NCBI GenBank assembly: GCA_047974325.1 | Contig: JBKECE010000237.1 | Span: forward strand, 2,323 to 66,322 | Direction of reading: 5' to 3' | DNA length: 64,000 bases | Source: Dysgonomonas sp. | Lineage (GTDB): Bacteria > Bacteroidota > Bacteroidia > Bacteroidales > Dysgonomonadaceae | In this document: positions 19,916 to 51,494 of the stretch, piece after piece | How the letters are laid out: every line of letters begins with the position of its first letter | How positions within the stretch are numbered: the first letter of the stretch is position 1 | The notes under the pieces: model-generated | The model's input: only the letters and a program-made list of their open reading frames with translations | Databases searched by the model: none | Told to the model about the DNA's origin: nothing | Position numbers and translations under genes: made by a program

Positions 19916-20007
19916 GCTATTTGACTGTAAAAAAAAGAGATATAGAAAATGCACATCGTTGTGTCGATGGAAATATAAAATCACTAACTAATCATTCTAA
20001 TCTAATC

Positions 20008-30307: not shown

Positions 30308-30530
30308 GGTATTTAATATAAAAATTTATAGTAACTGAATACCAAAGAAAGCAGCAATAAATTTATTATAAAACATATGATTTTAGGGAATTCCTAGAAT
30401 GTCACGTAAATATACTAATTAGACTTAAAGTTGTACGATAAAGAGGTGATATATAAGTCTATATGTTTTCTTTAATATTCCATTACCATTTTTCTCGTCT
30501 GATTTTTAGATGTGCTTTCCTTCACGAAGA

Positions 30531-33065: not shown

Positions 33066-33258
33066 AACAATATTTGATATTTCAATATAAATATATGATA
33101 GCCATTCAACAAAGCTAAAAAAAAAATATCATATTATGTCAGAACCATAAATTACAAAAATGATTTGAAGATATATTCTGCTATTTAATGAAAAATTAAT
33201 TGTACCAAGAGACAAAAATTGAGGACATCCCACTGATTTAACATTTTTATTTCCCGCG

Positions 33259-33288
33259 TTAATACAATATTAATGGAATAATTAATAC
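33259..33288 (+). promoter_or_regulatory. Three phased direct heptamers TTAATAC / TTAATGG / TTAATAC (11 and 12 bp spacing), candidate activator site
   Basis: The heptamers start at 33259, 33270 and 33282. They lie in the divergent regulator/GH92 intergenic region, and the last one ends 8 nt before the -7 box at 33297. The region is AT-rich, so chance occurrence is possible. Confidence 0.25.
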
Positions 33289-33296
33289 TCAGGATA

Positions 33297-33304
33297 TAAA
33301 TTTG
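33297..33304 (+). promoter_or_regulatory. Candidate -7 box (TAAATTTG) for the GH92 operon
   Basis: Exact TAnnTTTG match ~104 nt upstream of the ATG at 33408. No TTTG -33 element upstream; the heptamer repeats occupy that position. Confidence 0.3.
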
Positions 33305-33407
33305 TGCAGAAAAGAGGAGTACCTCATATAGACAGTTCTCCCAACAATAAAGATTAAGATATAATAAAGAAATCTATTTTTTTACTTTGACCAAGATCTA
33401 ATACAAT

Positions 33408-35717
33408 ATGAAAAAGACTTTCTTGTTTTTTCTCTTCGCCGGACTATCATTGACTATTTGCAAAGCAGAACAAAAATTGACTTCGGAATCAAAGTCCGCA
33501 CCGGTTGATTATGTAAATATATTAATGGGCTCTGGGTCTACATACGAATTGTCTGCCGGAAATACGTATCCTGCAATAGCTTTACCATGGGGAATGAATT
33601 TTTGGACACCTCAAACAGGTTCTATGGGCAATGGCTGGAGTTACAAATATAGCGATACAAAGATAAGAGGTTTTAAACAAACACACCAACCCAGTCCTTG
33701 GATCAGAGACTACGGGCAATTCGCCATTATGCCGGTTGTTGGTGCGAAAAAAATAAATCAAGACGAGAGGGCAAGTTGGTTTTCCCATAAATCTGAGACC
33801 GCAACACCTTATTATTATAAAGTCTACTTGGCAGACTATGATGTTACGACCGAAATGACACCGACAGAACGTTCTGCATATTTCCGTTTCACATTTCCTG
33901 AGTCAGATAGTGCATACATTGTTATTGATGCTTTCGATAATGGTTCTTTTGTAAAGGTCAATAAAGAAAATAACACCATAGAAGGTTATACAACTAAAAA
34001 TAGTGGCGGAGTGCCGGATAATTTTAAAAACTATTTTGTGATAAAATTCAATAAACCATTGGCTTCGGCCGAAGTTTGGAATGATTATAAAATTGTTGCC
34101 GGAAAAAATGAAATAAATTCAAATCATGTAGGAGCAATAATCGGTTTCAAAACAAAGAGAGGAGAATTGGTTGAAGCCCAAATAAGTTCATCTTTTATCA
34201 GTACGGATCAGGCTTACAAGAATCTCCAGGAGATAGGCAAAAGAGGTTTCGATCAGATCAAAGACGAGGCCTACAATACATGGAATAGGATATTATCTAA
34301 AATAGAAGTAGATGGTGGCACAGACGATCAATACCGTACATTCTATTCATGTTTGTACAGATCTTTGCTCTTTCCACGCAAATTTTATGAATATGATGTT
34401 GATGGAGCTGTTGTACATTATAGTCCCTACAATGGAAAAGTGCTTCCGGGATATATGTATACCGATACTGGTTTTTGGGACACATTCCGGGCATTGTTTC
34501 CATTCCTTAATTTGATGTTTCCGTCTGTGAACACCGAAATTCAGGAAGGTTTGCTGAATACATATAAAGAGAGTGGATTTCTTCCGGAATGGGCAAGTCC
34601 CGGACACCGCGATTGCATGATTGGTAACAATTCGGCATCAGTGGTAACAGATGCTTATATTAAAGGTGCAAAGGTGAAAAAAGAAGATATCGAAACATTA
34701 TATCAGGCAATGGTACATGGGGCGAATAATGTTGATTCCAAGATTTCTTCGACCGGACGTTTGGGTTACCAATATTACAATGAACTGGGTTATGTGCCTT
34801 ATAATGTGGGCATAAATGAAAATGCTGCCCGCACACTCGAATATGCTTATGATGATTGGTGCATTATGCAACTGGGTCGAAAATTGGGAAAACCTCAAAA
34901 AGAAATAGATGTATATGCCAAACGCAGCCTCAATTATAGAAATCTGTTCGACAAAGAAAGTAAATTGATGCGGGGCAAGAACAAGGATGGTGCATTCCAG
35001 ACTCCCTTCAATCCTTATAAATGGGGTGATGCTTTTACTGAAGGCAATAGCTGGCACTATACATGGAGTGTGTTCCATGATACACAAGGTTTGATTGATT
35101 TGATGGGTGGAAAAGACAATTTTGTGCAGATGTTGGATTCGGTGTTTGTTGTTCCCCCAATATTCGATGACAGCTATTATGGTCAGGTGATACACGAAAT
35201 ACGTGAAATGCAGGTCATGAATATGGGTAATTATGCACATGGAAATCAACCCATTCAGCATATGATCTATCTATACAACTATGCCAGTGCTCCATGGAAA
35301 GCTCAATATTGGTTGCGTGAAGTGATGGACAAATTGTATGCTCCCACTCCGGATGGTTATTGCGGAGATGAAGATAATGGACAAACATCTGTCTGGTACG
35401 TGTTTTCGGCATTAGGGTTCTATCCGGTGTGTCCCGGATCGGAACAATATGTACTTGGCTCCCCGCTATTTAAGAAAGCAATATTGAGCCTCGAAAATGG
35501 GAAAAAAATAGAGATAACTGCCACAAGCAACGATAGAAAGAACCGTTATGTGAAAAAATTGACCATTAATGGAAAAGAATATAAACATAATTGGATCAAC
35601 CATCCGGATCTGCTGAATGGCATGACAATGAAATATGAGATGGATTCCGTTCCCAATAAACAAAGAGGAATAGCTAAAGAAGACTATCCTTATTCATTCA
35701 GTAATGAAAATAAATGA
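33408..35717 (+). CDS. GH92 family alpha-mannosidase (secreted/periplasmic)
   Basis: Signal peptide. GH92 hallmarks are present: NGWSYKYSDTKIRGFKQTHQPSPWIRDYG, YAHGNQPIQHMIYLYNY and GDEDNGQTSVWYVFSALGFYPVCPG. Confidence 0.93.
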   Translation: MKKTFLFFLFAGLSLTICKAEQKLTSESKSAPVDYVNILMGSGSTYELSAGNTYPAIALPWGMNFWTPQTGSMGNGWSYKYSDTKIRGFKQTHQPSPWIRDYGQFAIMPVVGAKKINQDERASWFSHKSETATPYYYKVYLADYDVTTEMTPTERSAYFRFTFPESDSAYIVIDAFDNGSFVKVNKENNTIEGYTTKNSGGVPDNFKNYFVIKFNKPLASAEVWNDYKIVAGKNEINSNHVGAIIGFKTKRGELVEAQISSSFISTDQAYKNLQEIGKRGFDQIKDEAYNTWNRILSKIEVDGGTDDQYRTFYSCLYRSLLFPRKFYEYDVDGAVVHYSPYNGKVLPGYMYTDTGFWDTFRALFPFLNLMFPSVNTEIQEGLLNTYKESGFLPEWASPGHRDCMIGNNSASVVTDAYIKGAKVKKEDIETLYQAMVHGANNVDSKISSTGRLGYQYYNELGYVPYNVGINENAARTLEYAYDDWCIMQLGRKLGKPQKEIDVYAKRSLNYRNLFDKESKLMRGKNKDGAFQTPFNPYKWGDAFTEGNSWHYTWSVFHDTQGLIDLMGGKDNFVQMLDSVFVVPPIFDDSYYGQVIHEIREMQVMNMGNYAHGNQPIQHMIYLYNYASAPWKAQYWLREVMDKLYAPTPDGYCGDEDNGQTSVWYVFSALGFYPVCPGSEQYVLGSPLFKKAILSLENGKKIEITATSNDRKNRYVKKLTINGKEYKHNWINHPDLLNGMTMKYEMDSVPNKQRGIAKEDYPYSFSNENK

Positions 35718-35739
35718 AAATAATAATCTGAAAGTGACC

Positions 35740-38013
35740 ATGAAAGTAAAAAATTGTATTCTTTTCATCCTGCTTATTCCGGTGATACTGTTTTGTCAAA
35801 CAGGTAAGCAAAATAGTGCTGTTTGGCATGACAATGTAAATAAATATGTTGACCCTTATATCGGAACAGGAGGGCATGGTCATACTTTTATGGGAGTAGC
35901 AGCTCCTTTCGGAGCAGTTCAGATAGGTCCCAATAATATAAACAAAGGTTGGGACTGGTGCTCGGGATACCATTATTCGGATTCTGTGCTGATCGGGTTT
36001 TCCCACCTTCACCTCAATGGAACAGGTTGTAGTGATACTGGAGATTTGCTCTTTATGCCTTATACCGGATCTACAAAAACAAATCAGGGAACTCAAGAAA
36101 ATCCTACATCAGGGTATGGGTCACATTATTCACACGAAGATGAGGTGGTCGGAGTTGGCTACTATTCTGTTTTGCTGAAAGACCATAATGTGAAAGTGGA
36201 ATTGACAGCATCGGATCGAGTGGCATTTCATAAATATACTTTTCTGAAAAATGACAAAGAAAAGCATGTGATGATAAATCTGAAAGATGCAAACGGAGAC
36301 GATCAGGTTTTGGGTGCATATATGGAACAAGTTGATGATGTAACCATCAGAGGTTATCGTTTCTCTTCTGGATGGACAAAAAATCAGCAGATTTATTTTG
36401 TTGCTAAATTTTCTTCACCTGTTTCTCTTGCATTGTATGATGGAGATAAAAAAGTTAGTGGAAATAAGTTGAAAGGTTTGAATGTTAAAGGAAATGTTTC
36501 TTTCCCGAAAACGGTTTCGCAATTAAAAGTGAAGGTTGGTATTTCTCCTGTCAGCATGGAAAATGCCCAAGTAAACATAGACAAGGAGATTCCTGCATGG
36601 AATTTTGAAAAAATAGTGAAGCAGACAGAAGAGAAGTGGAACAAGGAATTGAACACGGTGCAAATTCAAAGCAACGATTCTGTTGCTAAGAGGATATTCT
36701 ATTCCGGAATGTACCATGCTTTTATCCAGCCTATTATTTTCAATGATTTCAATAAAGACTACAGAGGAAGTGACAAGAAAGTATATAAGAATGTAAATTT
36801 CAACAATTATACAGTATTTTCTTTATGGGATACGTATCGTGCGGCACATCCGCTTTATACGATTGTTCAGCCGCAAAGAGTTGCCGATTTTGTAAACTCG
36901 ATGATTGCAATAAACGATCAGCAGGGAATGCTCCCTGTTTGGCATCTCTATGGTGGCGACACATACGAAATGATCGGGATACAGTCTGTACCGGTTGTCG
37001 CAGATGCAATCTTGAAAAACTTTTCCGGCTTTGATTATGAAAAAGCATATCAGGCTATGAAAACATCTATGCTCAGTGATTATAAAGGTTTGAACTATTT
37101 GAAAACAAACGGATTTATACCCTCCGATCTGGAAAAAGAATCTGTAGCCAAAGGTTTGGAATATTCTATTGCAGATTGGAGCATAGCTCAAGTTGCAAAA
37201 AAACTGGGAAAAGATGATGATTACAAATTGTTCTCAAAAAGAGCCAAAAATTATCAATATTACTGGGATGATGAGACTCATTTTTTTCGTGGAAAAAATC
37301 AGAACGGAACATGGAGAGAGCCTTTCAGCCCATTTAGCTCTACCCATCGGAATGATGATTATTGCGAAGGCAATGGATATCAATATACATGGCTTGTGCC
37401 CCATGATGTGGAAGGATTGATATCGTTGTTTAAAAGTGAACAATCTTTCGTCAACAAACTGGACAGTTTATTTCAGATTAAAGAATCGCTCGGAGAAGAG
37501 GCTTCTCCGGATATTTCGGGAATGATTGGACAGTATGCTCATGGCAATGAACCGGGACATCATACCATTTATTTGTATGCTTTTGCTGGACAGCAATGGA
37601 AAACAGCACAAAGAGTGAGAGAGGTTTTGGACAACCTATATCACGATCAGCCGGACGGATTGGCCGGAAATGAAGACTGCGGTCAAATGTCCAGTTGGTA
37701 TATATTCTCAACTCTGGGTTTTTATCCGGTGAATCCGGCAAATGGTTTATTCGTGTTCGGCAGTCCATATTTGTTTGATAAGGCAACGATTGCATTGCCC
37801 CAAAACAAAAAATTCGAGATCATAGCTCAGAATAACTCTAAGGATAATATGTACATACAGTCAGTAGAATTAAATGGGAAACCGTATACAAAGTCTTATA
37901 TAATGTATGATGATATTATGAAAGGCGGCACTTTGAAGTTTATAATGGGAAATCGACCAAACTATGAATTTGGAAAAAATCAGCAAGATAGACCAAAATC
38001 AATTGTCGATTGA
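35740..38013 (+). CDS. GH92 family alpha-mannosidase (second paralog)
   Basis: Signal peptide MKVKNCILFILLIPVILFCQ from the ATG at 35740; the track start 35704 overlaps the upstream gene. Motifs: IGFSHLHLNGTGCSD, YAHGNEPGHHTIYLYAF and GNEDCGQMSSWYIFSTLGFYPVNPA. Confidence 0.93.
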   Translation: MKVKNCILFILLIPVILFCQTGKQNSAVWHDNVNKYVDPYIGTGGHGHTFMGVAAPFGAVQIGPNNINKGWDWCSGYHYSDSVLIGFSHLHLNGTGCSDTGDLLFMPYTGSTKTNQGTQENPTSGYGSHYSHEDEVVGVGYYSVLLKDHNVKVELTASDRVAFHKYTFLKNDKEKHVMINLKDANGDDQVLGAYMEQVDDVTIRGYRFSSGWTKNQQIYFVAKFSSPVSLALYDGDKKVSGNKLKGLNVKGNVSFPKTVSQLKVKVGISPVSMENAQVNIDKEIPAWNFEKIVKQTEEKWNKELNTVQIQSNDSVAKRIFYSGMYHAFIQPIIFNDFNKDYRGSDKKVYKNVNFNNYTVFSLWDTYRAAHPLYTIVQPQRVADFVNSMIAINDQQGMLPVWHLYGGDTYEMIGIQSVPVVADAILKNFSGFDYEKAYQAMKTSMLSDYKGLNYLKTNGFIPSDLEKESVAKGLEYSIADWSIAQVAKKLGKDDDYKLFSKRAKNYQYYWDDETHFFRGKNQNGTWREPFSPFSSTHRNDDYCEGNGYQYTWLVPHDVEGLISLFKSEQSFVNKLDSLFQIKESLGEEASPDISGMIGQYAHGNEPGHHTIYLYAFAGQQWKTAQRVREVLDNLYHDQPDGLAGNEDCGQMSSWYIFSTLGFYPVNPANGLFVFGSPYLFDKATIALPQNKKFEIIAQNNSKDNMYIQSVELNGKPYTKSYIMYDDIMKGGTLKFIMGNRPNYEFGKNQQDRPKSIVD

Positions 38014-38056
38014 TTAAAAAAAAGAATCATTCAATTAACAACTAAATTTTAATCTT

Positions 38057-39376
38057 ATGAAAATGAAAAATTACAAAAAATCTTTGTTAACAAGTATGTT
38101 CGCTTGTTCTCTGTTCTTAAATGCTTTTGCTCAGACATCTCCGTTTGCCGGAGGTAGCGGAACAAAAAAAGATCCTTATTTGATCGAAACACCTCGTCAG
38201 TTCGATGCAATTCGTGACTATAGAGATAAAAATTTTAAACTGAATGCAGACCTTGACTTCACAGGATATTTGAGAGAAGACGGCGGAACTTGGTGGCCCG
38301 TTGGAGAATGGGGCAGCGGGGACAATGCTGCTGAACGTTTCAGTGGAACTTTTAATGGAAACGGACATAAAATAAAGAATCTTGTTGTAGAAAGAACAGC
38401 TTCCGACCTAAGTATTTTTGGTGTAACTGATGGTGCTCAGATTTCTAACCTTATTGTTGAAGGCTGTGAAATTACAGGTGAAGGCCGTTTAGGTGTATTG
38501 ACAGGAGCTACATTCCGTACCGAGATAGATCAGGTTGCAGTGATCAATAGCAAATGTCTGAACACATTGTCCGATCATGGATCCAATGCCGGGGGCATTA
38601 CCGGACCTCTGTTTGCCGGAAGCACAATTACAAATAGTTATTCGATAGGCGGAAAGGTTTTTGGAAAAGATGCAATAGGTGGAGTCTGCAGCCAGATTAA
38701 TGACGGCAGCACGATTTCTAATTGCTATACAACTTGTGACGTAGAGGGAAATACAAATGTTGGAGGTATTACAGGAAACACCAATGGTGGTTATATATTG
38801 AATTCCGTAGCAATAAATACGGCAATCACCTGTCATGATGTGAATGATGGCCGCATAGCAGGCACTGTGAACGGTAGCAATCTTTTGTCCAATAATTATG
38901 CTTATAGATACACAACCGTGAATGGTGGAGTGAATGGAGAAATGGTGACAGATGTATCTGTTAATGCAAAAAACGGAGCAAATGCGACTGAAGATGAATT
39001 GACATCCGTATCTTTCTATGCCACCAATCTGACATGGGATATTGCGGCAGACAATTCAACTGTTTGGAAGGTTGATGCAACAATTTTCAAATATCCGGTA
39101 CTATCTTGGCAAACTGAAGGACCTGGTTCCGGCATTGTCAATGTTGAAGAACAAAATGCAAATAAATATAAAGTTTTTGTAATTGGTAATTCTGTTGTCG
39201 TCAATAATCTACAGGCAAACGATGATGTATCTGTATATTCTCTTTCAGGCACACTTGTTGGCAGATCTAAAGCTATAAATTCTACAGAATCTATTCCGGT
39301 TACCAACAATGGATTATATGTTGTAAAAATAGCATCACAAGGACAATCTTATATTTTTAAAGCAATAAAGAGATAA
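38057..39376 (+). CDS. Secreted GLUG-motif repeat protein with T9SS C-terminal sorting domain
   Basis: Signal peptide. GSGTKKDPYLIETPRQFDAIRD...FSGTFNGNGHKIKNLVV is followed by repeated GG(I/V)xG...I.N(C/S)Y units: NAGGITGPLFAGSTITNSYS, IGGVCSQINDGSTISNCYT and VGGITGNTNGGYILNSVA. The C-terminal ~75 aa (VFVIGNSVVVNNL...NGLYVVKIASQGQSYIFKAIKR) are CTD-like. Confidence 0.75.
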   Translation: MKMKNYKKSLLTSMFACSLFLNAFAQTSPFAGGSGTKKDPYLIETPRQFDAIRDYRDKNFKLNADLDFTGYLREDGGTWWPVGEWGSGDNAAERFSGTFNGNGHKIKNLVVERTASDLSIFGVTDGAQISNLIVEGCEITGEGRLGVLTGATFRTEIDQVAVINSKCLNTLSDHGSNAGGITGPLFAGSTITNSYSIGGKVFGKDAIGGVCSQINDGSTISNCYTTCDVEGNTNVGGITGNTNGGYILNSVAINTAITCHDVNDGRIAGTVNGSNLLSNNYAYRYTTVNGGVNGEMVTDVSVNAKNGANATEDELTSVSFYATNLTWDIAADNSTVWKVDATIFKYPVLSWQTEGPGSGIVNVEEQNANKYKVFVIGNSVVVNNLQANDDVSVYSLSGTLVGRSKAINSTESIPVTNNGLYVVKIASQGQSYIFKAIKR

Positions 39377-39388
39377 TTTCTATAGACT

Positions 39389-39441
39389 AAACCATCACTT
39401 ATCTTATTCTATAATTAGATACGATAAATAGGTGATGGTTT
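39389..39441 (+). terminator. Possible terminator/attenuator hairpin between the GLUG gene and susC-like gene
   Basis: 10-bp stem aaaccatcac / gtgatggttt with a long (~33 nt) loop, followed by a T-rich tract (tttactttttttg). Confidence 0.4.
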
Positions 39442-39499
39442 TTACTTTTTTTGCTTCTTATGTAATCTAATTAACCTAACATTTAAATTCAAATAGAGG

Positions 39500-42400
39500 A
39501 TGATGAATAATGTTGTTCTAAAATCATCTGTCAGAAAACAAGTACCTGTCACGTTCGGGATTCGCAGCTTTCTGACAGTTCTGATTATTTTTAGTTTCCA
39601 GATCGCAGCTTTTGCTCAAAATGGCAAACAAATATCCGGTTTTGTCAAAGACAAGAATGGCGAAAGCCTTATCGGAGTTGCAGTTTTGGTCAAAGGTGAA
39701 ACAAGAGGAACTACAACGGATTTCGATGGAAAATACAATCTGACCGTGTCTGACAAAACAGTGTTGGTGTTTTCCTATCTGGGTTTTCAAACACAAGAAG
39801 TTACTGTCGGAGATAGAACGGTTTTGGACGTAATGATGCAAAGTGATAGCCAGTTGATAGATGAAGTTGTTGTTGTCGGTTATGGAACGCAACGCAAAGC
39901 AACCCTTACGGGAGCTGTGTCAACGGTGGGGACAAATGAAATTAACACAGCCACAGCATCGAACGTAAAAGACCTTTTGGCTGGCAAGCTTGCGGGTGTC
40001 AGAGTGCAGCAGCAAACCGGAGAACCCGGTTCTTATTCTTCCAAAATGGATATTCGCGGTTTAGGCTCTCCTCTCATTGTCATAGATGGTGTGATCAGGG
40101 ATGAAGCTGCCTTTCAACGTCTCGAGCCTAATGAAATAGAAAGCGTAAGTGTCTTGAAAGATGCCTCGGCTGCTGTTTATGGTATGCGTGCAGCAAATGG
40201 AGCTGTGGTAGTTACCACTAAAAGAGGACAAAATGGCAAGACTAAGATTGAATATTCCGGAACTATCGGGTTTCAGAATCCGTCGGGTTTGCCCGATGTG
40301 CTGAATGCTTCGCAATATGTAGAATTGGTGCGTGAAGCCGATAAAAATATGGGGCGCGGCATTAATGCTACTTACACGGAAGCGGATCTGGCTCGTTTGA
40401 GTCAATCTGGAGGAACGGATTGGTATAGTCTTATGATCCGCGATGCAGCACTACAAACACATCACAACATATCGGCAAGCGGAAGCACCGACCGAGTGAA
40501 CTATTTCTTGTCTTTCGGTTATTATGCCGAGGATGGAATATGGAAAAGCGGAGATTTAAATTATGAACGTTACAATCTGAGGTCTAATCTCGGATTCACT
40601 ATAACAAAAGGTCTGAAAGCAGATGTGATCATCAATGCAACAACAGATGCCAAGAATCAACCTTATAAGGATACTTGGGAACAATTCAAATCTTTATGGC
40701 TACTCAAACCTGTGGACACTCCGTATGCTAACGATAATTCGGATTATCTAAACGATGTGCTCTATGGCTTGAACCCTTTGGCTACGACGAACGCAGACTT
40801 GTCAGGATATAAAAAGAGTGAAAATAAATTGTTCAATACATCATTTTCCCTAACCTATGATACACCTTTCCTAAAAGGACTGACAGCTAAGTTATTATAT
40901 AGTTATGACTATCAAATGACTGAGAACAAGAATTTCCAGAAATCATATTCTTTATATAAATATGATGGTGCTTCGGATCTATACACAGCTTATCTATACA
41001 ATAATCCGTCATCACTCTATCGACGGACGTGGAATCAGTCGCAAAATATGTTTCAGGCATCGCTCAACTATGAAACGTCTATAGACAAAAAACATAATAT
41101 CAAGGGGCTTCTGTTGTTCGAGAAAAGCAGCCTGAAAAAAGATAATTTCTATGGATCGGCCAATTTTGATATGGATGCAGTGGACGAGTTATATGCCACA
41201 TCGAAAGAAGATCAGGTGGTGTCGTCTGATATAAACAATATCTGGGAACAAAAAAATGCAGGACTCATTGGTCGTGTCAATTATGACTATCTGTCAAAAT
41301 ATCTTTTGGAACTTAGTTTCAGATATGATGGATCTTCCAAATTCGCAAAAGGATATCGTTGGGGATTTTTTCCTGCCATTTCGGGAGGATACAGAATCTC
41401 TGAAGAAAATTTCATGAAAGAAAACAATAGCCTCAGATTTATAACCAACCTGAAATTGAGAGCATCGTACGGTAGCATGGGAGACGACAGCTCCTCGACT
41501 TATCAATATCTGACCGGATATGAATATCCGGGAGCAAGTTATGTGTTTGGAGATAATGCTTATAGTGGACTGGCTTTCAAATCACTGGCTAACGAAAATT
41601 TATCGTGGTTCAAATCCAAAACATTGAATCTGGGAACAGACATTGAATTGTGGAATGGTTTGCTATCTTCTGAGATTGACTTTTTCTGGCGATATCGTTC
41701 AGGATTGTTTGCAACGAGGGATGCCCAGATTCCGGGAACATTCGGAGCATCTTTTCCTCAAGAAAATCTCGAAAAAGATTTGTATAAAGGCTTTGAGGTA
41801 ACATTGACACACAGAAATAAAATTAATAATGTCAACTATTCGTTAAGTGGCAATTTTGCAATCACAAGGAGTATGTGGCGTTCGCGGATTGAGGGTGATT
41901 ACAAGAATTCATACGATAGATGGAGAAATAGTTATCAGGGAAGATATAAGGATATGGGCTGGGCATATGGATCAGAAGGTCAGTTTGTTTCCATGCAGGA
42001 TATTTGGAACTCTCCAATTCAGGATGGGCAAGGAGGTGCAACACAATTGCCCGGCGACTGGAAATATGAGGACTGGAATGGAGACGGCGTGATAGATGAT
42101 AAAGATTACTATCCGAACACATACGAATATGCCGATGGAAGCAGCAATCCCAAAATGACCTTCGGGTCAACTATTACGGCCGAATGGAAAGGCTTTGACA
42201 TAAATATCTTATTCCAAGGTGCAGCAGGATTCAATGTACGCTATCTTGAACAAATGCAATATCCATTGTGCTTCAGTGGAGGAGGTTTGGCCTATTTCTA
42301 CGACCGTTGGCATCAGGATAACGATGGAAATTGGATTTCGGGAAGATGGCCTACCACTCGCGATGCAGGTTCATACGCAACAAATTATAAAAATGCATTG

Positions 42401-42637
42401 CAAACAACTTACAATGCCTCTTATCTGAGAATAAAGAGTGCGGAATTAGGTTATACCCTGCCTCAAAAACTGATCCAAAGATCGGGTCTGGAGAGCGTAC
42501 GCTTTTCAGTGAGCGGATACAATCTGATCACATTCTCTAACCTTGACTTTGTGGATCCGGAGCATCCTGACGGGTCTTATGGATACCTCTATCCAATCAT
42601 GAGAAACTTCAACTTTGGAGTCAATGTTGTATTCTAA
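39500..42637 (+). CDS. susC: SusC-family TonB-dependent outer-membrane transporter (no STN/anti-sigma signalling extension)
   Basis: The signal peptide is followed directly by a CarboxypepD_reg domain (ISGFVKDKNGESLIGVAVLVKGETRGTTTDFDGKYNL...FSYLGFQTQEV). The SusC TonB-box/plug follows: DEVVVVGYGTQRKATLTGAVS...SVLKDASAAVYGMRAANGAVVVTTKRG. The C-terminus is ...NFNFGVNVVF. Confidence 0.93.
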   Translation: MMNNVVLKSSVRKQVPVTFGIRSFLTVLIIFSFQIAAFAQNGKQISGFVKDKNGESLIGVAVLVKGETRGTTTDFDGKYNLTVSDKTVLVFSYLGFQTQEVTVGDRTVLDVMMQSDSQLIDEVVVVGYGTQRKATLTGAVSTVGTNEINTATASNVKDLLAGKLAGVRVQQQTGEPGSYSSKMDIRGLGSPLIVIDGVIRDEAAFQRLEPNEIESVSVLKDASAAVYGMRAANGAVVVTTKRGQNGKTKIEYSGTIGFQNPSGLPDVLNASQYVELVREADKNMGRGINATYTEADLARLSQSGGTDWYSLMIRDAALQTHHNISASGSTDRVNYFLSFGYYAEDGIWKSGDLNYERYNLRSNLGFTITKGLKADVIINATTDAKNQPYKDTWEQFKSLWLLKPVDTPYANDNSDYLNDVLYGLNPLATTNADLSGYKKSENKLFNTSFSLTYDTPFLKGLTAKLLYSYDYQMTENKNFQKSYSLYKYDGASDLYTAYLYNNPSSLYRRTWNQSQNMFQASLNYETSIDKKHNIKGLLLFEKSSLKKDNFYGSANFDMDAVDELYATSKEDQVVSSDINNIWEQKNAGLIGRVNYDYLSKYLLELSFRYDGSSKFAKGYRWGFFPAISGGYRISEENFMKENNSLRFITNLKLRASYGSMGDDSSSTYQYLTGYEYPGASYVFGDNAYSGLAFKSLANENLSWFKSKTLNLGTDIELWNGLLSSEIDFFWRYRSGLFATRDAQIPGTFGASFPQENLEKDLYKGFEVTLTHRNKINNVNYSLSGNFAITRSMWRSRIEGDYKNSYDRWRNSYQGRYKDMGWAYGSEGQFVSMQDIWNSPIQDGQGGATQLPGDWKYEDWNGDGVIDDKDYYPNTYEYADGSSNPKMTFGSTITAEWKGFDINILFQGAAGFNVRYLEQMQYPLCFSGGGLAYFYDRWHQDNDGNWISGRWPTTRDAGSYATNYKNALQTTYNASYLRIKSAELGYTLPQKLIQRSGLESVRFSVSGYNLITFSNLDFVDPEHPDGSYGYLYPIMRNFNFGVNVVF

Positions 42638-42650
42638 ATATCAAATAATT

Positions 42651-44441
42651 ATGAAGATAAAATATATAATATTATTATTGCTGACAGTTGGCTTTTTCGG
42701 GTCTTGCGAACTGGATGTCAATCCTAAAAATATTGTTCAGGATGAGTTGGTTTTTTCTTCCGAATCGGGAATCAGGGCTTATTTTGTCACTCTCTATTCA
42801 GACTTGCCTGTCGAAGATTTTAAATTTGGAAAAAATGGATTCAATGCCAGCGGAAATCAGACCTATCTGGCTTTTGTTTCCGGCGAAGCCATCGCTAAAG
42901 ATGATATCAGTAATATCGGAGATGGAACTTGGTGGGGAGCTTGGGATTATGGACGTATCCGCAGAGTGAATTATTTTATTCAGACTTTACCGAAATATAA
43001 AGATAAATATTCCGAAGATAAATATAATGCATGGATGGGCGAAGCCTATTTTATTCGAGCCTATTGCTATTTCTCGATGGTGAAACGATATGGAGGTGTG
43101 CCCATCTTGAAGGAACCACAGGTGTGGACGGGAGATGTGAATGCCCTGAAAGTTCCTCGTAATACCGAGAAAGACTGCTACGATTTCATTGCCGAAGATT
43201 TAGATTTGGCTGCCGATTTGATGGAAAAGGGCAAAACAATACTTTCTGATGCATCATATTCAGGACGGGCAAATGAATTTATCGCTTATGCCTTGAAATC
43301 GAGAGCTATGCTGTATGCAGGAAGCATTGCTCGCTATGGCTCGGTGAATTTGAATGGCTTGGTGGGAATTGAATCACAATATGCCGACCATTATTTTACG
43401 TTGGCTTTTGAAGCTGCTGAAAAAGTTGTGAGTTCGGGCAAATACAGCCTTTACAGGGGCAATACCAACAAAGAGAAGAATTTTACTGAACTGTTTTTGG
43501 CAGATAACAGCAGTGAAAATATTTTTGTGAAAAGCTACAAGCTCAATGTCAATGCTCATAGTTGGGATATATATTGTGTGCCTTATCAATATAGGGGAAC
43601 AGGCTACTCTTCGAGCATAAATCCGACTTTGGATCTGGCTGAGTTGTTTGAATATCAGGATGGATCGGGTGTGAATATTACACAGAAAGCACAAACCATG
43701 CGGTTTGATAAACCAACTGATATTTTTTCAGGATTGGATGCTCGGTTTGGAGGCAGCATCATTTATCCGAATTCAACATTTAAGGGAACGACCTGCACTC
43801 TGCAAAAAGGTCTGATCGTAGAAGACGGTTCTAAGAAAGAAAGTGCAAACAGCGATACCGTGACCTATAGGGCACAGAATGGTAAAACCTATCGGGTTGT
43901 AGGTGAAAGTGGTGTGGGCAAATATTCAGGAAATATGACGGGTTTTGTGATCCGCAAATATTTGAATGAAAGCCAAACTGAAATGAGAGAGAACTATTCT
44001 ACACAACATTGGATAGATTTCCGGTTGGCTGAGATTTACTTGAATGGAGCAGAAGCTGCTGCGGAGCTCAACAATGCAACGGATCAAAGTGAAGCTTTGG
44101 TCTGGATGAACGACCTGAGAGACAGAGCAGGACTCAAAAACTGGAGCAGTTCGGAGTTGACTATAGACAATGTCCGCAAAGAAAGAAGAGTTGAACTTGC
44201 TTTTGAAAATCACGCATATTGGGATTTGAGAAGGTGGCATATAGCCGATAAAATATTTGAAACTACCCGTTTGAGGTCTTTATTTCTGTATCAGGATGTG
44301 AGAGACGACAAATATGTTTTTGAAGTGGGATATCCCAACAGTTATTATTATACATTTGATGTGAAGATGTACTATGAAAAAATACCTGATTCCGAAATAT
44401 CAAAGAATGGATTGTTGGTACAAAACCCTTATTATAACTAA
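42651..44441 (+). CDS. susD: SusD/RagB-family outer-membrane glycan-binding lipoprotein
   Basis: Lipoprotein signal MKIKYIILLLLTVGFFGSC from the ATG at 42651. It lies immediately downstream of susC. SusD-type TPR-like motifs include GEAYFIRAYCYFSMVKRYGGVPI, RLAEIYLNGAEA and ERRVELAFENHAYWDLRRW. Confidence 0.9.
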   Translation: MKIKYIILLLLTVGFFGSCELDVNPKNIVQDELVFSSESGIRAYFVTLYSDLPVEDFKFGKNGFNASGNQTYLAFVSGEAIAKDDISNIGDGTWWGAWDYGRIRRVNYFIQTLPKYKDKYSEDKYNAWMGEAYFIRAYCYFSMVKRYGGVPILKEPQVWTGDVNALKVPRNTEKDCYDFIAEDLDLAADLMEKGKTILSDASYSGRANEFIAYALKSRAMLYAGSIARYGSVNLNGLVGIESQYADHYFTLAFEAAEKVVSSGKYSLYRGNTNKEKNFTELFLADNSSENIFVKSYKLNVNAHSWDIYCVPYQYRGTGYSSSINPTLDLAELFEYQDGSGVNITQKAQTMRFDKPTDIFSGLDARFGGSIIYPNSTFKGTTCTLQKGLIVEDGSKKESANSDTVTYRAQNGKTYRVVGESGVGKYSGNMTGFVIRKYLNESQTEMRENYSTQHWIDFRLAEIYLNGAEAAAELNNATDQSEALVWMNDLRDRAGLKNWSSSELTIDNVRKERRVELAFENHAYWDLRRWHIADKIFETTRLRSLFLYQDVRDDKYVFEVGYPNSYYYTFDVKMYYEKIPDSEISKNGLLVQNPYYN

Positions 44442-44456
44442 AAAAACAAGAAGAAA

Positions 44457-45218
44457 ATGAAGAAAATATTTTATATATTCGGGTTAAGCGCACTAATATT
44501 CACTTCTTGTGACTATTTTGAGCATGACAATTATGATGCACCTGATGCCACATTGAAAGGTGTTGTGAAAGATGCGAAAACTAATGATAATTTATCGACA
44601 GAGATCGCAGCGAGCTTTAAGATAGAATATTATGAGCTGAGCTGGGAAGAAGCAGGACACAGCAACACCGAAGCCCAGATTTTTTGGAACAAAGAAGATG
44701 GTATGTTCAACAATACTAAAATATTTAGTGGAAAGTATCGCATAACTTTGAAGGAGGGAGCTTTCTATGCACCTGAATCGCAGATAGTACAGTTGCAGAG
44801 CAATAAGACAACCGAACTCAATTTTTCAGTAGTACCTTATGCAAGGGTGCAGATTGACGATATCCAGTTGAACGGAACTGCAGATAATAACAATCTGGTG
44901 ATTAAGTATACAGTGCAAGATACAGAATCGGAAATCAATACGGAAACAACCGACGAAGATTTGTATACATTGAGCGAGGCTCGCGTTTTCATATCGAGCA
45001 AATCTCCCAATGTGGGAGTGAACAATAATGAGACGAAATATACGCTGAATGCAAAAAAGAATGTCTCCAACTATACGCCGGGCACCGCTAAATCATATAC
45101 TGAAACCAATGTAAAGAACTTGCCTGCCGGAACATGGTGGATACGCATCGGTGTCAGAACCGACAATCCTCAGAAGAGATACAATTTTACGCCGGTTAAG
45201 GAAATCACTGTTTCTTGA
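44457..45218 (+). CDS. PUL-associated surface lipoprotein in the SusE/F position (DUF3823-like)
   Basis: Lipobox LIFTSC, followed by NYDAPDATLKGVVKDAKTNDNL, a carboxypeptidase-regulatory-like beta-sandwich start as seen in DUF3823-type proteins. The family call rests on recollection of the pattern only. Confidence 0.5.
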   Translation: MKKIFYIFGLSALIFTSCDYFEHDNYDAPDATLKGVVKDAKTNDNLSTEIAASFKIEYYELSWEEAGHSNTEAQIFWNKEDGMFNNTKIFSGKYRITLKEGAFYAPESQIVQLQSNKTTELNFSVVPYARVQIDDIQLNGTADNNNLVIKYTVQDTESEINTETTDEDLYTLSEARVFISSKSPNVGVNNNETKYTLNAKKNVSNYTPGTAKSYTETNVKNLPAGTWWIRIGVRTDNPQKRYNFTPVKEITVS

Positions 45219-45248
45219 TTGCCATTTTATAATTGATTAAAGAAAAGG

Positions 45249-47186
45249 ATGAAAATAAAATTCGCAATAGCACTATTTTTTATCACATTGGTTCCGTCTG
45301 CAACAGTCTGTGCCAATGTGGTAAAGATGGTTCAGGAGAAGTCCGATGAACCGTCTAATCAAGCACTAGTGATTCCTATGGAATCTTCCTCAGTTTCAGT
45401 TTTGTATGATCCGTCAGACAAAGCTTATTTTTCAGGCGATGGAATTAAGGGTACATCAGATGGACTGATTATGGACCTCGGAAATATAGATTTTGGCGAT
45501 AAGCTTTATAATAAAATCTGGATTGAAATGTCCAATATGGCAAACGAAAGCGATTCTGCTAAATTTCAGTTTTATATTGATGGAGAACTAATCTTGCCCG
45601 ATCTTTCGTTGGATATTCCTGTCAATGAACCTGTTATTTCCTACGAAAGTTCAAAGTCTCCCCAAAGTGGAATGTTTTTTAAAAATGCACAGTCCGGCAT
45701 CGTTACAGTCTTTGATGTACGCAAAGATGAAAGTCTGGCAAAACTTTCTTCGATGGTGATGCAAGGTATAATCAATCAGCAAACTGCACAGGTGTATCTT
45801 TACGTTGAAGGACATCATATCACGCAGCTGGCAGAAACCGGCTTGCAAATAAATCTGGAAGAGAGATTGAGCAATGATAAATATGGAGCTTTAGGGGCAA
45901 TGGTCAATAAGTATGGAGATTTGTTTAATAAACTTGTCGTTTGGGACGAAAACAAAGAGTGGACTTGGTGTCTGGCTCAGATGATTTCTGCACAACAGGG
46001 TGGAATTCCTGTGACGGAAGACATAAAAAACTATATAGTGAACGACCTTGGATGGACAAAAGATGTGTATGATATCCGAAATTTGTGGACAAATAAACTT
46101 GATGCTTATCAGTGGGCGATAGATAATCTGGCAGCAAACTGTCATCCGAATATTGGTTTTTCTGCAGGTTTGCGTAACGATTATGTTTCTGCTCCATGGA
46201 AAATATATGATTATGCGGCAGCGACAAAAGGCTTTGTCTTTTATCTGAGCGAAAAAAATTCGGACGAAGCCCAGATGATTGAAAAAATCTGTCAGAAGAT
46301 GAATTATCAACCGGGAGCTTCTATCATGGGATATGGAGCAAGTGATGATGGAGATGGCCTGAATTCTATTATAAATAAATATAATGCGGGATTTATCGTG
46401 AGCGACTATTATGCCAACGGTAGTTTCTGGTGTTCATTCCCATCCAAGTCATTTAATCAGCGCAAAGGCAAACCCATTGATGCAAAAGCAGGAAAAGTCT
46501 ATGTGAGTTTCATTTGGAGTGATGGTGATAACATACAGTTCGATGCAAACAAACTGTACCTGATGTTTAAGAATGCAACAGGCAGAGGTGAAATACCTGT
46601 CGGGGTTACTCTTGCACCGGGATTGCAGGAAATCAATCCATTCTTGCTGGAATATTTTTATAAGAACCTGACTCCGAATGACGAACTGATGGCAGGACCT
46701 TCCGGTTTTCAGTTCATTTATGGTGATTCATACAATTCCTCAACATACAATACATGGCTCGGAATGAATAAGGAATGGATAGAAACAGCCGGATTCAATA
46801 CGGCCTGCCTGTGGAACACGACCGGAAATGCTTTTGACGAATATATGAGAACCTGCAACTTGCAAGGAATATTTGACGGATGGAGCACCGCAAACAATAA
46901 ATATATTAATAATGTGGTTGCCGTCAATCAGGGAACTCATTGCTTCAATGAAGGCGATGTATACAATGATCTGGTCAAGGCAAAACCGGATGCCAATAAA
47001 CCTATTTTCAGAAATTTATATCTCATTGCGGCCAACTATGGTGGTGATGATGGTTATCAGAAACTGAAAAGAGAATTGCTGAAGCTGGAAAATGATTATC
47101 CCGACAGATATGTATACCTTTTGCCGATGGATTTGTGTGCCACGCTAAAAAAATACATAGATGAAAATGGAGGCAGCTATAATTAA
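45249..47186 (+). CDS. Secreted 645-aa protein: N-terminal CBM-like module + large uncharacterised putative glycoside-hydrolase domain (possibly GxGYxYP-family-like)
   Basis: Signal peptide. The N-terminal segment NIDFGDKLYNKIWIEMSNMANESDSAKFQFYIDGE resembles the CBM-like module of the next gene. The body contains LSSMVMQGIINQQTAQVYLY, IWSDGDNIQF and AGPSGFQFIYGD, which recall the GxGYxYP putative hydrolase family. This was not verified by a search. Confidence 0.55.
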   Translation: MKIKFAIALFFITLVPSATVCANVVKMVQEKSDEPSNQALVIPMESSSVSVLYDPSDKAYFSGDGIKGTSDGLIMDLGNIDFGDKLYNKIWIEMSNMANESDSAKFQFYIDGELILPDLSLDIPVNEPVISYESSKSPQSGMFFKNAQSGIVTVFDVRKDESLAKLSSMVMQGIINQQTAQVYLYVEGHHITQLAETGLQINLEERLSNDKYGALGAMVNKYGDLFNKLVVWDENKEWTWCLAQMISAQQGGIPVTEDIKNYIVNDLGWTKDVYDIRNLWTNKLDAYQWAIDNLAANCHPNIGFSAGLRNDYVSAPWKIYDYAAATKGFVFYLSEKNSDEAQMIEKICQKMNYQPGASIMGYGASDDGDGLNSIINKYNAGFIVSDYYANGSFWCSFPSKSFNQRKGKPIDAKAGKVYVSFIWSDGDNIQFDANKLYLMFKNATGRGEIPVGVTLAPGLQEINPFLLEYFYKNLTPNDELMAGPSGFQFIYGDSYNSSTYNTWLGMNKEWIETAGFNTACLWNTTGNAFDEYMRTCNLQGIFDGWSTANNKYINNVVAVNQGTHCFNEGDVYNDLVKAKPDANKPIFRNLYLIAANYGGDDGYQKLKRELLKLENDYPDRYVYLLPMDLCATLKKYIDENGGSYN

Positions 47187-47198
47187 GAACAAATCTTT

Positions 47199-48092
47199 AT
47201 GAGAATGAATAAGGTATTATTATCATTAGTTACATTATTTTCTATTGTAGTCACTTTGCAAGCAGAAGATTTAGACATACCGATGAGCAATCTGTCAGGT
47301 ATCGCTCTCAATATCAATGTTAAGATAGAAAATGTCGGTACTGATGGTGCAAAATATGATAGAACGACACAGTCTATTATCAATACTAGCAATGGCACAA
47401 TTATCAGTATCTCAAAAGTTGATTTTGGAAGTGGACGATACGGTAGTTATAGCTATTTGTATGTGGAATACACAAACCCTGAGGAGGTGACAGACGATGC
47501 TTTCTTTGATGTCTATCTGGACAATGGTACGACCTTGGTTGCATCCATTCCTGTAGAGAAAACGCTGGAAGGAGAGTATGTGAAAAGTTCGTCTACAATG
47601 CAGGTCTGTATGAACAACCAGCGCAATATTTATGTAAAATGGCGCAATCATGCGGCCGATTTGAAGACTTTCGGAGCATACGAAAGAAAGCCCTTGGTGG
47701 AAGTCAGTGCCGTGAAAACCGGATCGCCGCTCGTATATAAATTTTCATCAGCTACGTTTGATGCAATAGAAGGTGTCCATAATCTGAAAATGATGTGGGT
47801 GAAACAGTCAGCTAACGTTTCGGCCATCTATTTTGATAATACGGCTTACAATTCGATAGAACCCGAAACAGAGAATCCATCATATTCGATCAGAACAATG
47901 AATCGCGTTTTGTTCATCACTTCAACTGAGCCTTTAAAACAGGTTGAGGTATATTCAATTGATGGTAAATTGCTATTTAACAGTTCGCAAAAGGGTAATT
48001 CGTTCGAGATACCGCTTCAAAATTTGATTTCAATTTTAAAAATAACAGATTCATCAGGAAATAAAAGTATCAGGAGAATCATATGTAATTGA
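47199..48092 (+). CDS. Secreted tandem CBM-like (CBM6/35-type pattern) protein with T9SS C-terminal sorting domain
   Basis: Signal peptide. Contains VDFGSGRYGSYSYLYVEYTNPEEVTDDAFFDVYLDNGTTLVASIPV and a second module with FDAIEGVHNLKMMWVKQSANVSAIYF. The CTD-like tail is VEVYSIDGKLLFNSSQKGNSFEIPLQNLISILKITDSSGNKSIRRIICN. Confidence 0.6.
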   Translation: MRMNKVLLSLVTLFSIVVTLQAEDLDIPMSNLSGIALNINVKIENVGTDGAKYDRTTQSIINTSNGTIISISKVDFGSGRYGSYSYLYVEYTNPEEVTDDAFFDVYLDNGTTLVASIPVEKTLEGEYVKSSSTMQVCMNNQRNIYVKWRNHAADLKTFGAYERKPLVEVSAVKTGSPLVYKFSSATFDAIEGVHNLKMMWVKQSANVSAIYFDNTAYNSIEPETENPSYSIRTMNRVLFITSTEPLKQVEVYSIDGKLLFNSSQKGNSFEIPLQNLISILKITDSSGNKSIRRIICN

Positions 48093-48110
48093 TAAATGTT
48101 AATTTGATAG

Positions 48111-48159
48111 TTCCGAATTTGGTGATATTAAAAGTCTGCCAAATTCGGAATTTTTTTTT
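48111..48159 (+). terminator. Strong rho-independent terminator closing the PUL operon
   Basis: 12-bp perfect stem ttccgaatttgg / ccaaattcggaa, followed by a run of 9 T. Confidence 0.8.
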
Positions 48160-48429
48160 ATATTGTTGCGTAGCTTACTTTGGACAGTGAATCCATGAAG
48201 TATTTTTCCCCGTCTTTACAATTCTTCATCTGGATACCCTTTTTCAAGGGCAATAATGGAAATATCTGGTGAAGATTCAAAATGCTGTTTTACACCAACT
48301 AAATCTAAAATTACACTATATAAGTCTAAAATTCCCCCGTTCGATTTTTTTCATATAACTAATTTTACCTTCACAAAAAGTTAACCTGTATCAGATTTTC
48401 TAAAAAACACTTATTTATTAAAAAATACC

Positions 48430-51077: not shown

Positions 51078-51494
51078 TTATTTGATTGTCACCTTACGGC
51101 TTCCATCGTCCATCTCTTCAATGGCTACATTCACCACATCGTGAGGCAGGAGTGATTCTACCTTTTCGGGCCATTCTATGAAACAGATGCTGCCGCTGTA
51201 GAAATAATCTTCATAACCAAAATCGAATGCTTCTTCTACTTTGTTAATGCGGTAGAAATCGAAATGATAAATCAATTCGCCGGAGTTTGATCTGTATTCA
51301 TTGATGATGGCAAAAGTTGGACTGTTTATGACATCTTCTACGCCGAGTTTTTCGCAGATGGCTTTTATGAATGTTGTTTTACCGGCTCCCATTTTGCCGT
51401 GAAAAGCAAAAACCGTGTTATCTCCCATTGCATTCACAAACTCAAGAGCAGCGTCCCCGATCGTTTCCAATGATTTTATTATAATATCTTTCAT
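51078..51494 (-). CDS. tsaE: tRNA t6A37 threonylcarbamoyl-transfer ATPase TsaE
   Basis: [17 protein letters not shown] (P-loop), [10 protein letters not shown] and HFDFYR motifs. The ~138 aa size fits. Confidence 0.9.

Follow-up and report, generated by a model that had tools for sequence, protein, structure and literature searches.

A Dysgonomonas member of a recurrent GH92-containing Sus-like locus type, with a candidate regulator gene interrupted in this strain

A 64,000-nt stretch of Dysgonomonas sp. DNA (assembly GCA_047974325.1, contig JBKECE010000237.1, positions 2,323 to 66,322, forward strand; hereafter the window) carries, between positions 33408 and 48092, a Sus-type polysaccharide utilisation locus (PUL) with two GH92 genes, and a divergent neighbouring gene, here named REG, that is a candidate for its regulator. 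The locus is a real and widely conserved Bacteroidales cluster and, as predicted from its sequence, serves the importing and trimming of a mannose-containing glycan. We consider it probable that it belongs to a widespread, biochemically uncharacterised subtype of Sus-like PUL for alpha-mannoside-containing glycans, working by the mechanism proposed below and controlled by REG. Most of this is ordinary, namely a predicted PUL of a recurrent type; the most valuable parts of the locus are the regulator-operator pair and the link between a GxGYxYP-family protein and a GLUG-like protein. Loci combining GH92 and GxGYxYP genes are common in gut Bacteroides and environmental Bacteroidales, and how they sense their substrate is undescribed. 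The conserved gene set, the gene fusions, the candidate sensor-regulator and the positioned putative operator make regulation and, through induction, the substrate directly testable.

Gene content of the locus

Families were assigned to the open reading frames (ORFs) of the window with Pfam and NCBIfam models, and folds were compared using AlphaFold2 (AF2) models and Foldseek. A first-pass annotation, made from the letters and the ORF translations, had listed eight plus-strand genes, and all eight were found where it had placed them. The order is GH92, GH92, a GLUG-like protein with a type IX secretion system (T9SS) sorting domain, a hairpin, SusC, SusD, a DUF3823 lipoprotein, a 645-aa protein, a CBM6-like T9SS protein and a terminator. 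That annotation's description of a Sus-type PUL with two GH92 enzymes, which prove to be divergent, was borne out by domain matches: susC and susD are adjacent (gap of 13 nt from the likely SusD start), and genes for carbohydrate-active enzymes, two GH92 and one GxGYxYP, share their orientation. Successive genes are separated by -14 to 30 nt, with two wider gaps of 43 nt ahead of the GLUG gene and 123 nt ahead of susC.

Both GH92 enzymes are full-length at 769 aa and share 32% identity. Their N-terminal and catalytic domains score above the curated thresholds in GH92a (33408..35717, +; PF17678 235 bits; PF07971 7e-172, 573 bits; TIGR01180 841 bits) and in GH92b (35704..38013, +; PF17678 265 bits; PF07971 1.8e-176, 588 bits; TIGR01180 688 bits). 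The nearest PDB entries of GH92a were 2wvx/2wzs (BT3990; 1240 bits), BT3990 being an alpha-1,2-mannosidase of the Bacteroides thetaiotaomicron high-mannose N-glycan PUL (PMC4978465). GH92b was nearest to 7zgm, 6f8z (BT3130) and 6f91 (BT3965); 7zgm is a B. massiliensis alpha-1,3-mannosidase active on plant N-glycans (PMC9522356), and the relatives of GH92b are alpha-1,3 or alpha-1,4 enzymes (PMC9522356, PMC5930347). Judged by these nearest structures, GH92a would be of the BT3990-like alpha-1,2 type and GH92b a member of the alpha-1,3/alpha-1,4 clade. The GH92 family is defined by Ca2+-dependent exo-alpha-mannosidase activity. Most homologous loci with SusC/D have a GH92b orthologue as the gene immediately before the GLUG gene. 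Translation of GH92b may instead begin at ATG 35740 (MKVKNC...), in which case the gene would no longer overlap GH92a by 14 nt. The endo-acting partners usual in yeast-mannan or N-glycan PULs, which the first pass could not recognise, were not found here either: GH76, GH99, GH125, GH38, GH18 and GH130 left no Pfam or NCBIfam signature in the locus.

The SusC-like TonB-dependent transporter (39500..42637, +; TIGR04056 872 bits) carries CarboxypepD_reg and Plug domains and, in agreement with the first reading, lacks the STN domain expected of a SusC under ECF/anti-sigma control. The ORF of the SusD-like lipoprotein opens at TTG 42615; its likely start is ATG 42651, giving a protein that begins MKIKY...FFGSC (42651..44441, +; PF07980 3.5e-50; PF14322 1.1e-20). 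It is followed by a 253-aa DUF3823 lipoprotein with the lipobox LIFTSC (44457..45218, +; PF12866 1.3e-8), a probable surface glycan-binding protein, whose position is conserved in homologous loci with SusC/D.

The 645-aa protein (45249..47186, +), which had been entered as an unknown, belongs to the GxGYxYP family of putative glycoside hydrolases (PF14323, GxGYxYP_C, 9e-28, 98.2 bits, cut-off 27; PF20958 67.9 bits; PF20957 64.5 bits; PF16216 scored under its cut-off) and matched PDB entry 3sgg (BT2193) at E 2e-14. The family was proposed as a new class of glycoside hydrolase by Rigden et al. in 2014, and its link to GH92 and alpha-mannan PULs was published there: family members occur in the alpha-mannan-responsive PUL69 of B. 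thetaiotaomicron (BT3857, BT3859), BT2200 adjoins the GH92 gene BT2199, and a Caldithrix member lies beside GH92 and GH38 (PMC4071793). The label of an unknown is therefore superseded. The putative catalytic triad of BT2193 is E272, D331 and D333 (PMC4071793). D425 and D427 of the 645-aa protein align with D331 and D333, within a motif (S424-D425-G426-D427-N428) that is invariant in 26 homologues, whereas E272 aligns with D367, a conservative change at a position that is not invariant. The first ~150 residues form a CBM6-like module resembling the 297-aa protein encoded next (E 3e-6). In its homologues the signal peptide is of the plain type-I kind, a lipobox Cys is not conserved and a C-terminal sorting domain (CTD) is missing, and for these reasons the protein is more likely periplasmic than surface-exposed. 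This speaks against a role as surface depolymerase; the first-pass suggestion that the candidate non-GH92 activities of the locus reside in the 645-aa and GLUG proteins stands. The 645-aa product of the window itself had no record in the assemblies index.

The two members reported to bear T9SS tails do carry CTD-like domains, one scoring above and the other below the TIGR04183 cut-off of 23 bits. The first is the 439-aa GLUG-like protein (38057..39376, +), a predicted right-handed beta-helix with a type-A CTD (27.1 bits). It gave no direct PF07581 match even at E<=10; remote homologues (E 1e-28 to 1e-8) carry PF07581 GLUG, and its membership is transitive only. Its AF2 model (pLDDT 90.4) matched 3n6z (BACOVA_03286) in Foldseek with E 1.5e-9 and TMt 0.70 and also the beta-helix of the IgA1 protease 6xjb, while the last ~75 residues matched the T9SS CTDs 8glk_D, 8qb1 and 5hfs. 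A scan of genome contigs with the GLUG alignment yielded, among the matches listed, two close loci, the others being distant GLUG proteins from other phyla. The second is the 297-aa CBM6-like beta-sandwich protein (47199..48092, +), for which both the CBM6 match (PF03422 E 0.0045 and 17.7 bits, cut-off 28.9) and the CTD match (16.9 bits) are sub-threshold. It is a fast-evolving protein, and its homologues (eight found) carry PF03422 and PF18962. The AF2 model is of moderate confidence overall (pLDDT 69), with a CBM6 domain at pLDDT ~80 that matched CBM6 structures (TMt 0.65) and a C-terminal domain at pLDDT ~84 that matched the RgpB CTD (TMt 0.63). The first-pass labels of a GLUG-repeat and a CBM-like T9SS protein hold with these reservations.

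Recurrence of the gene set and natural fusions

The architecture is not unique, and its core is shared by loci from Bacteroides, from Dysgonomonadaceae and from other metagenomic sources. The order GH92b-GLUG-SusC-SusD-DUF3823-GxGYxYP-CBM6-like was found, with protein identities of 33-72%, in at least six independent loci, among them L001 (a B. nordii-type contig), L005 and L090; in L007 it is cut off by the fetched range. A Dysgonomonadaceae metagenome-assembled genome (L003/L009) keeps the genes from GLUG through CBM6-like with no GH92 upstream, and in L010 a GxGYxYP+GLUG fusion gene replaces GH92b. The GLUG, GxGYxYP and CBM6-like trio is adjacent even where SusC/D lie elsewhere (L088, L089).

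Natural GxGYxYP-GLUG fusions of 1023 aa (L005, 16138-19209) and 841 aa (L010, 5141-7666) argue for joint action of the GxGYxYP protein and the GLUG-like helix. A further, 458-aa fusion copy (L007, 10001-11377), beside a DDE transposase, is truncated by an insertion sequence. Larger relatives add GtaA-like (DUF4964/DUF5127), GH51, GH43, GH127, GH78 and GH115 genes and extra GxGYxYP paralogues; the window locus is a minimal version of these.

A candidate regulator gene beside the locus

Domains of hybrid two-component systems (HTCS), SusR, extracytoplasmic-function (ECF) sigma/anti-sigma pairs, AraC, LacI and GntR were not found in ORFs of at least 150 aa across the 64 kb. The earlier statement that the PUL has no canonical regulator stands for HTCS, ECF/anti-sigma and SusR; however, a conserved candidate regulator gene abuts the locus and a conserved repeat/promoter element precedes GH92a, and "without a regulator" is misleading here. 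REG (30531..33065, -) is one 845-codon frame with two in-frame TAA codons, at 32286-32288 (codon 260) and 32019-32021 (codon 349), and is otherwise uninterrupted; its fragments are three same-frame ORFs (32286-33065, 32019-32213 and 30531-31670, -). In tblastn it gave a single 830-aa high-scoring segment pair with 45% identity to Kelch-repeat proteins of 818 and 887 aa, which sit divergently beside the homologous clusters in L003 and L088. The REG homologues have Tyr at both stop positions. Tyr codons (TAT or TAC) likewise stand at both sites in four metagenome assemblies, obtained from food-production and wastewater samples, whose strains are ~98% identical, and REG is therefore considered intact in sibling strains and a pseudogene here. 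At the stop sites the runs X5, X9 and X10 provided only short, low-depth contigs ending nearby. The nonsense codons here and the intact siblings offer a natural comparison, and the case carries a lesson of method: a claimed absence of a regulator should be checked against interrupted reading frames.

Between positions 30400 and 33500, the REG region, 68 of 3101 positions differ from the sibling assemblies (~2.2%); between 38000 and 46000, ~71% of 31-mers are shared with the siblings, which suggests roughly 1% divergence. The higher divergence of the REG region may reflect relaxed constraint on a broken gene.

The predicted REG product begins with a signal peptide, followed by a domain with weak similarity to LamG/ConA, a Kelch propeller, one strongly hydrophobic transmembrane helix (residues ~546-566, by hydropathy) and, after a Lys/Arg cluster, a 278-aa cytoplasmic domain, giving an N-out/C-in topology. 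The family of this cytoplasmic domain comprises 1237 representative clusters at 50% identity, mostly of 830-890 aa. Among 25 family members, BTAD was matched by six (best E 0.0027), Trans_reg_C by two and the AfsR/SARP model NF041231 by four, all below threshold; these SARP-type models were the only recurrent matches and came from two independent libraries. The SARP family members AfsR, ActII-ORF4, DnrI and EmbR combine an OmpR-type winged helix with BTAD. "SARP-OmpR" is a listed class of predicted PUL regulators (PMC7641319), and our literature search found no characterised "SARP-OmpR" or Kelch/BTAD PUL regulator. The REG family would share with SARPs and this class its weak but recurrent BTAD, Trans_reg_C and AfsR/SARP matches; classical SARPs are soluble actinobacterial activators, whereas the REG domain, with its sub-threshold scores, is predicted to be membrane-anchored, with a LamG and Kelch sensor preceding it on the periplasmic side.

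A metagenome scan for the REG domain, which used the closer homologue set A6, gave 80 loci. In human-gut contigs, homologues of 41-48% identity are divergent to GH92a, GxGYxYP (or a GxGYxYP-GLUG fusion), GH92b and SusC, and many homologues at 29-33% identity still lie beside a GH92 gene. Matches to the family came from human-gut, freshwater and marine metagenome contigs.

A putative operator-promoter upstream of GH92a

Promoters of Bacteroidetes have the -7 consensus TAnnTTTG. A putative operator-promoter (33259..33304, +) lies upstream of GH92a, in which three direct repeats of TTAATR (TTAATA from 33259, TTAATG from 33270 and TTAATA from 33282, with start-to-start distances of 11 and 12 nt) are followed after nine nt by TAAATTTG (33297-33304), which fits that consensus; from the end of the element to the GH92a ATG are 104 nt. 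The composite of repeats and box has one match in the 64 kb and none in 200 shuffles. In the same orientation it heads the orthologous clusters L003/9, L005/6, L007/8, L088 and L089, and the distance from the start of the last repeat to the box is exactly 15 nt in all of them. Many human-gut loci have it once or twice, before the GH92a unit, the GH92b unit or, in most, both. All 42 composite matches in 2.6 Mb of fetched loci fall in these PULs, and two-repeat variants in the same register lie beside more distant REG homologues (L120, L131). SARP sites are known to consist of direct repeats with one-turn (~11-nt) periodicity that abut a downstream promoter element, and the composite likewise has ~11-nt repeats that end a fixed short distance upstream of such an element. 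From this geometry and the linkage of the gene, we infer that REG may bind the TTAATR repeats. Another candidate, a TAATCTAAY motif shared upstream of susC genes, was rejected: it was not enriched (2 found against 1.7 expected).

Hairpin, terminator and transcription units

An intrinsic terminator (48109..48159, +; -21.9 kcal/mol, z -5.0, followed by U9) closes the cluster. The strong terminator of the first pass is thus real, but it does not establish a single transcription unit, given the internal hairpin. A sigma-70-type promoter and terminator scan, uninformative for Bacteroidetes, missed this terminator because of its long loop. The internal stem-loop with T-run between the GLUG gene and susC (39389..39453, +), which had been called weak, has -19.6 kcal/mol (z -5.7) and is about as strong. 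A stem-loop of unrelated sequence stands at the same place in six homologous loci (L001 ~4126-4165, L003 ~4220-4257, L005 ~4172-4211, L007 ~15127-15156, L010 ~9139-9173 and L090 ~4134-4174); it may serve as a terminator, an attenuator or an element of RNA stability. Rfam gave no family within 30000-49000 at E<=0.1.

The strength, T-run and conserved position of this hairpin would suit two transcription units, GH92a-GH92b-GLUG and susC-susD-DUF3823-GxGYxYP-CBM6-like, separated by a true terminator and with a promoter in the 123-nt gap. This is possible, but we do not favour it. The gap between GLUG and susC has no TAnnTTTG box and no TTAATR repeats, here or in Bacteroides-type loci; the Bacteroides-type loci also place the operator-promoter upstream of GH92b rather than susC; and in L003 the hairpin takes up nearly all of a gap of only 68 nt. 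Because the gap is devoid of such promoter-like elements, susC seems more likely to be served by read-through or processing from the upstream promoter than by a promoter of its own.

Proposed mechanism and alternatives

We propose that at the cell surface SusD and the DUF3823 lipoprotein would bind the glycan, probably with assistance from the T9SS-exported GLUG-type beta-helix and CBM6-like proteins, and that SusC, as its family membership suggests, would import the fragments. In the periplasm the GxGYxYP enzyme would act on the imported oligosaccharide, and the two divergent GH92 exo-alpha-mannosidases, of the BT3990-like alpha-1,2 type and the alpha-1,3/1,4 type, would strip mannose. Control would lie not with an HTCS, an ECF/anti-sigma pair or SusR but with REG, a periplasmic LamG-like and Kelch sensor joined by a single membrane pass to a cytoplasmic winged-helix/BTAD (SARP-like) output domain, which would bind the three TTAATR repeats, one helical turn apart and ending 9 nt before the GH92a -7 box. 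If REG is an activator, the two Tyr-to-TAA nonsense mutations would leave the locus poorly inducible or uninducible in this strain. A broader proposal is attractive, though we stop a little short of expecting it to hold: that REG represents a widespread class of single-pass one-component PUL regulators that activate alpha-mannoside PULs through TTAATR repeats in the -33 region, and that the GLUG, GxGYxYP and CBM6-like trio is a new glycan-cleaving system without a CAZy-classified catalytic domain. If so, the strain of the window would be a natural regulator knock-out.

Several points weigh against the reading of the locus as an alpha-mannoside PUL under REG control. Since related loci add GH51, GH43, GH127, GH78, GH115 and GtaA-like genes, a heteroglycan rather than simple mannan may be the substrate. 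The stop codons of REG are those of the assembled sequence, for which no raw reads from the window's own source were found. Its SARP assignment comes from sub-threshold matches of family members, the window's own REG domain matching neither model, and searches of PDB with the cytoplasmic domain (phmmer and a family profile) gave nothing meaningful. The locus sequence was matched in DNA metagenome assemblies and in no RNA run. In the searchable literature we found no GxGYxYP or GLUG-domain protein with demonstrated glycosidase activity; IgA1 proteases have their GLUG domain outside the M26 metalloprotease domain, and no catalytic role is known for it. Finally, homologues from Bacteroidaceae-type contigs keep the CTD-like domain, and the B. 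fragilis/thetaiotaomicron group is generally held to lack a T9SS; a CTD-like tail kept in such contigs is therefore no proof of surface export. The domain was seen in homologues of both CTD-bearing proteins from Bacteroidaceae-type and Barnesiella contigs (alignment A2, e.g. P0135, P0141 and P0142; L001 11973-12848).

Part of this evidence would also suit a PUL with no dedicated regulator, constitutive or controlled in trans, in which the 645-aa and/or GLUG protein is the surface depolymerase and T9SS cargo serves as in the Flavobacterium johnsoniae chitin locus. The 64 kb hold no canonical regulator domain, SusC has no STN, two proteins have CTD-like tails, and with REG broken any expression in this strain would be regulator-independent. 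We nevertheless regard this as unlikely, given a conserved neighbour that resembles a membrane sensor with a DNA-binding domain, a conserved repeat-promoter element, signal peptides that make a surface site for the GxGYxYP protein improbable, and two T9SS cargos of which neither has a recognised catalytic domain. Still less probable, in our estimation, is that the Kelch/LamG membrane protein is a glycan-binding or scaffold protein and not a transcription factor, the TTAATR repeats being bound by another factor or forming a UP-like extended promoter. It is true that no DNA-binding model rose above threshold, that the PDB profile search was empty and that the likely B. thetaiotaomicron counterpart, if equivalent, is named only "LamG domain-containing protein" by NCBI (PMC10434189). 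But a scaffold accounts poorly for SARP-type models as the only recurrent matches in two libraries, for an N-out/C-in topology with a conserved 278-aa cytoplasmic domain, and for a gene tightly and divergently linked to promoters whose 11-nt-spaced direct repeats have a geometry characteristic of SARP binding sites.

As for the substrate, a high-mannose or plant-type N-glycan instead of a polymeric mannan, with the GxGYxYP protein replacing the GH18/PNGase step, has some appeal. GH92a is very close to BT3990 of the high-mannose N-glycan PUL, GH92b has its closest structural match in an alpha-1,3-mannosidase active on plant N-glycans (PMC9522356), and surface binders, SusCD and periplasmic GH92s parallel PUL-HMNG (PMC4978465). 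We think it an improbable target all the same: the locus has no GH18, PNGase, GH20, GH2 or GH29 gene, related loci add arabinofuranosidases, rhamnosidases and GH115, which do not fit N-glycans, and the GxGYxYP protein is probably periplasmic.

Relation to known systems

Among the closest parallels are the BT2199-BT2203 PUL and MAN-PUL3/PUL69 (BT3857, BT3859) of B. thetaiotaomicron, where GxGYxYP genes adjoin GH92 and SusC/D genes as they do here (PMC4071793). BT2199 is a cell-surface GH92 active on yeast mannan (PMC4978465), BT2201 is SusD and BT2203 is the "LamG domain-containing protein" (PMC10434189), which may be the equivalent of REG. These loci differ from ours in gene order, and neither a GLUG-like nor a CBM6-like T9SS protein is reported from them. 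The BT3983-BT3994 high-mannose N-glycan PUL, to whose BT3990 GH92a is close, combines SusC/D, surface glycan-binding proteins and several periplasmic GH92s; unlike the locus here it has a GH18 endo-enzyme and an ECF-sigma/anti-sigma pair (PMC4978465). The locus here is without GH18, a SusC STN domain and an ECF pair.

In the F. johnsoniae chitin locus, the T9SS-secreted ChiA, a demonstrated GH18 chitinase, works alongside SusC/D-like proteins. Sus-like uptake and T9SS cargo occur together there as here, and the first-pass annotation had drawn this parallel. It holds as an analogy only, because the T9SS cargos here, a GLUG beta-helix and a CBM6-like module, have no recognised catalytic domain. 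With the GLUG protein 3n6z and the N-terminal beta-helix of the streptococcal IgA1 protease (6xjb) the 439-aa protein shares its predicted beta-helix fold; it differs in having no M26 protease domain and an added T9SS CTD.

Neighbouring genes

Two neighbours were considered as further members of the system and rejected. A PL1 pectate lyase with CBM77 and a T9SS CTD (48430-50997, +) lies past the terminator, separated from the PUL by it and 337 nt, and is not conserved beside homologous loci. The GDSL/LamG gene at 28670-30307 is not orthologous to the GDSL genes near other such PULs. A SASA-type esterase/GH2_N protein (19921-21951, +) has a 43%-identical homologue (L143, 2919-4910) beside a distant REG/GH92 locus, which may be coincidence.

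The core T9SS genes are not in view, and the window holds a PorX-type gene and further CTD proteins. The former, with a response-regulator receiver and a PglZ domain (the architecture of the PorX-type T9SS regulator), lies ~3.4 kb downstream of the PUL (51501-53045, -), with TsaE adjoining (51078-51494, -). The latter include a 1593-aa BspA-type leucine-rich-repeat protein with a T9SS CTD (23649-28430, +), and the neighbourhood is unusually rich in T9SS cargo.

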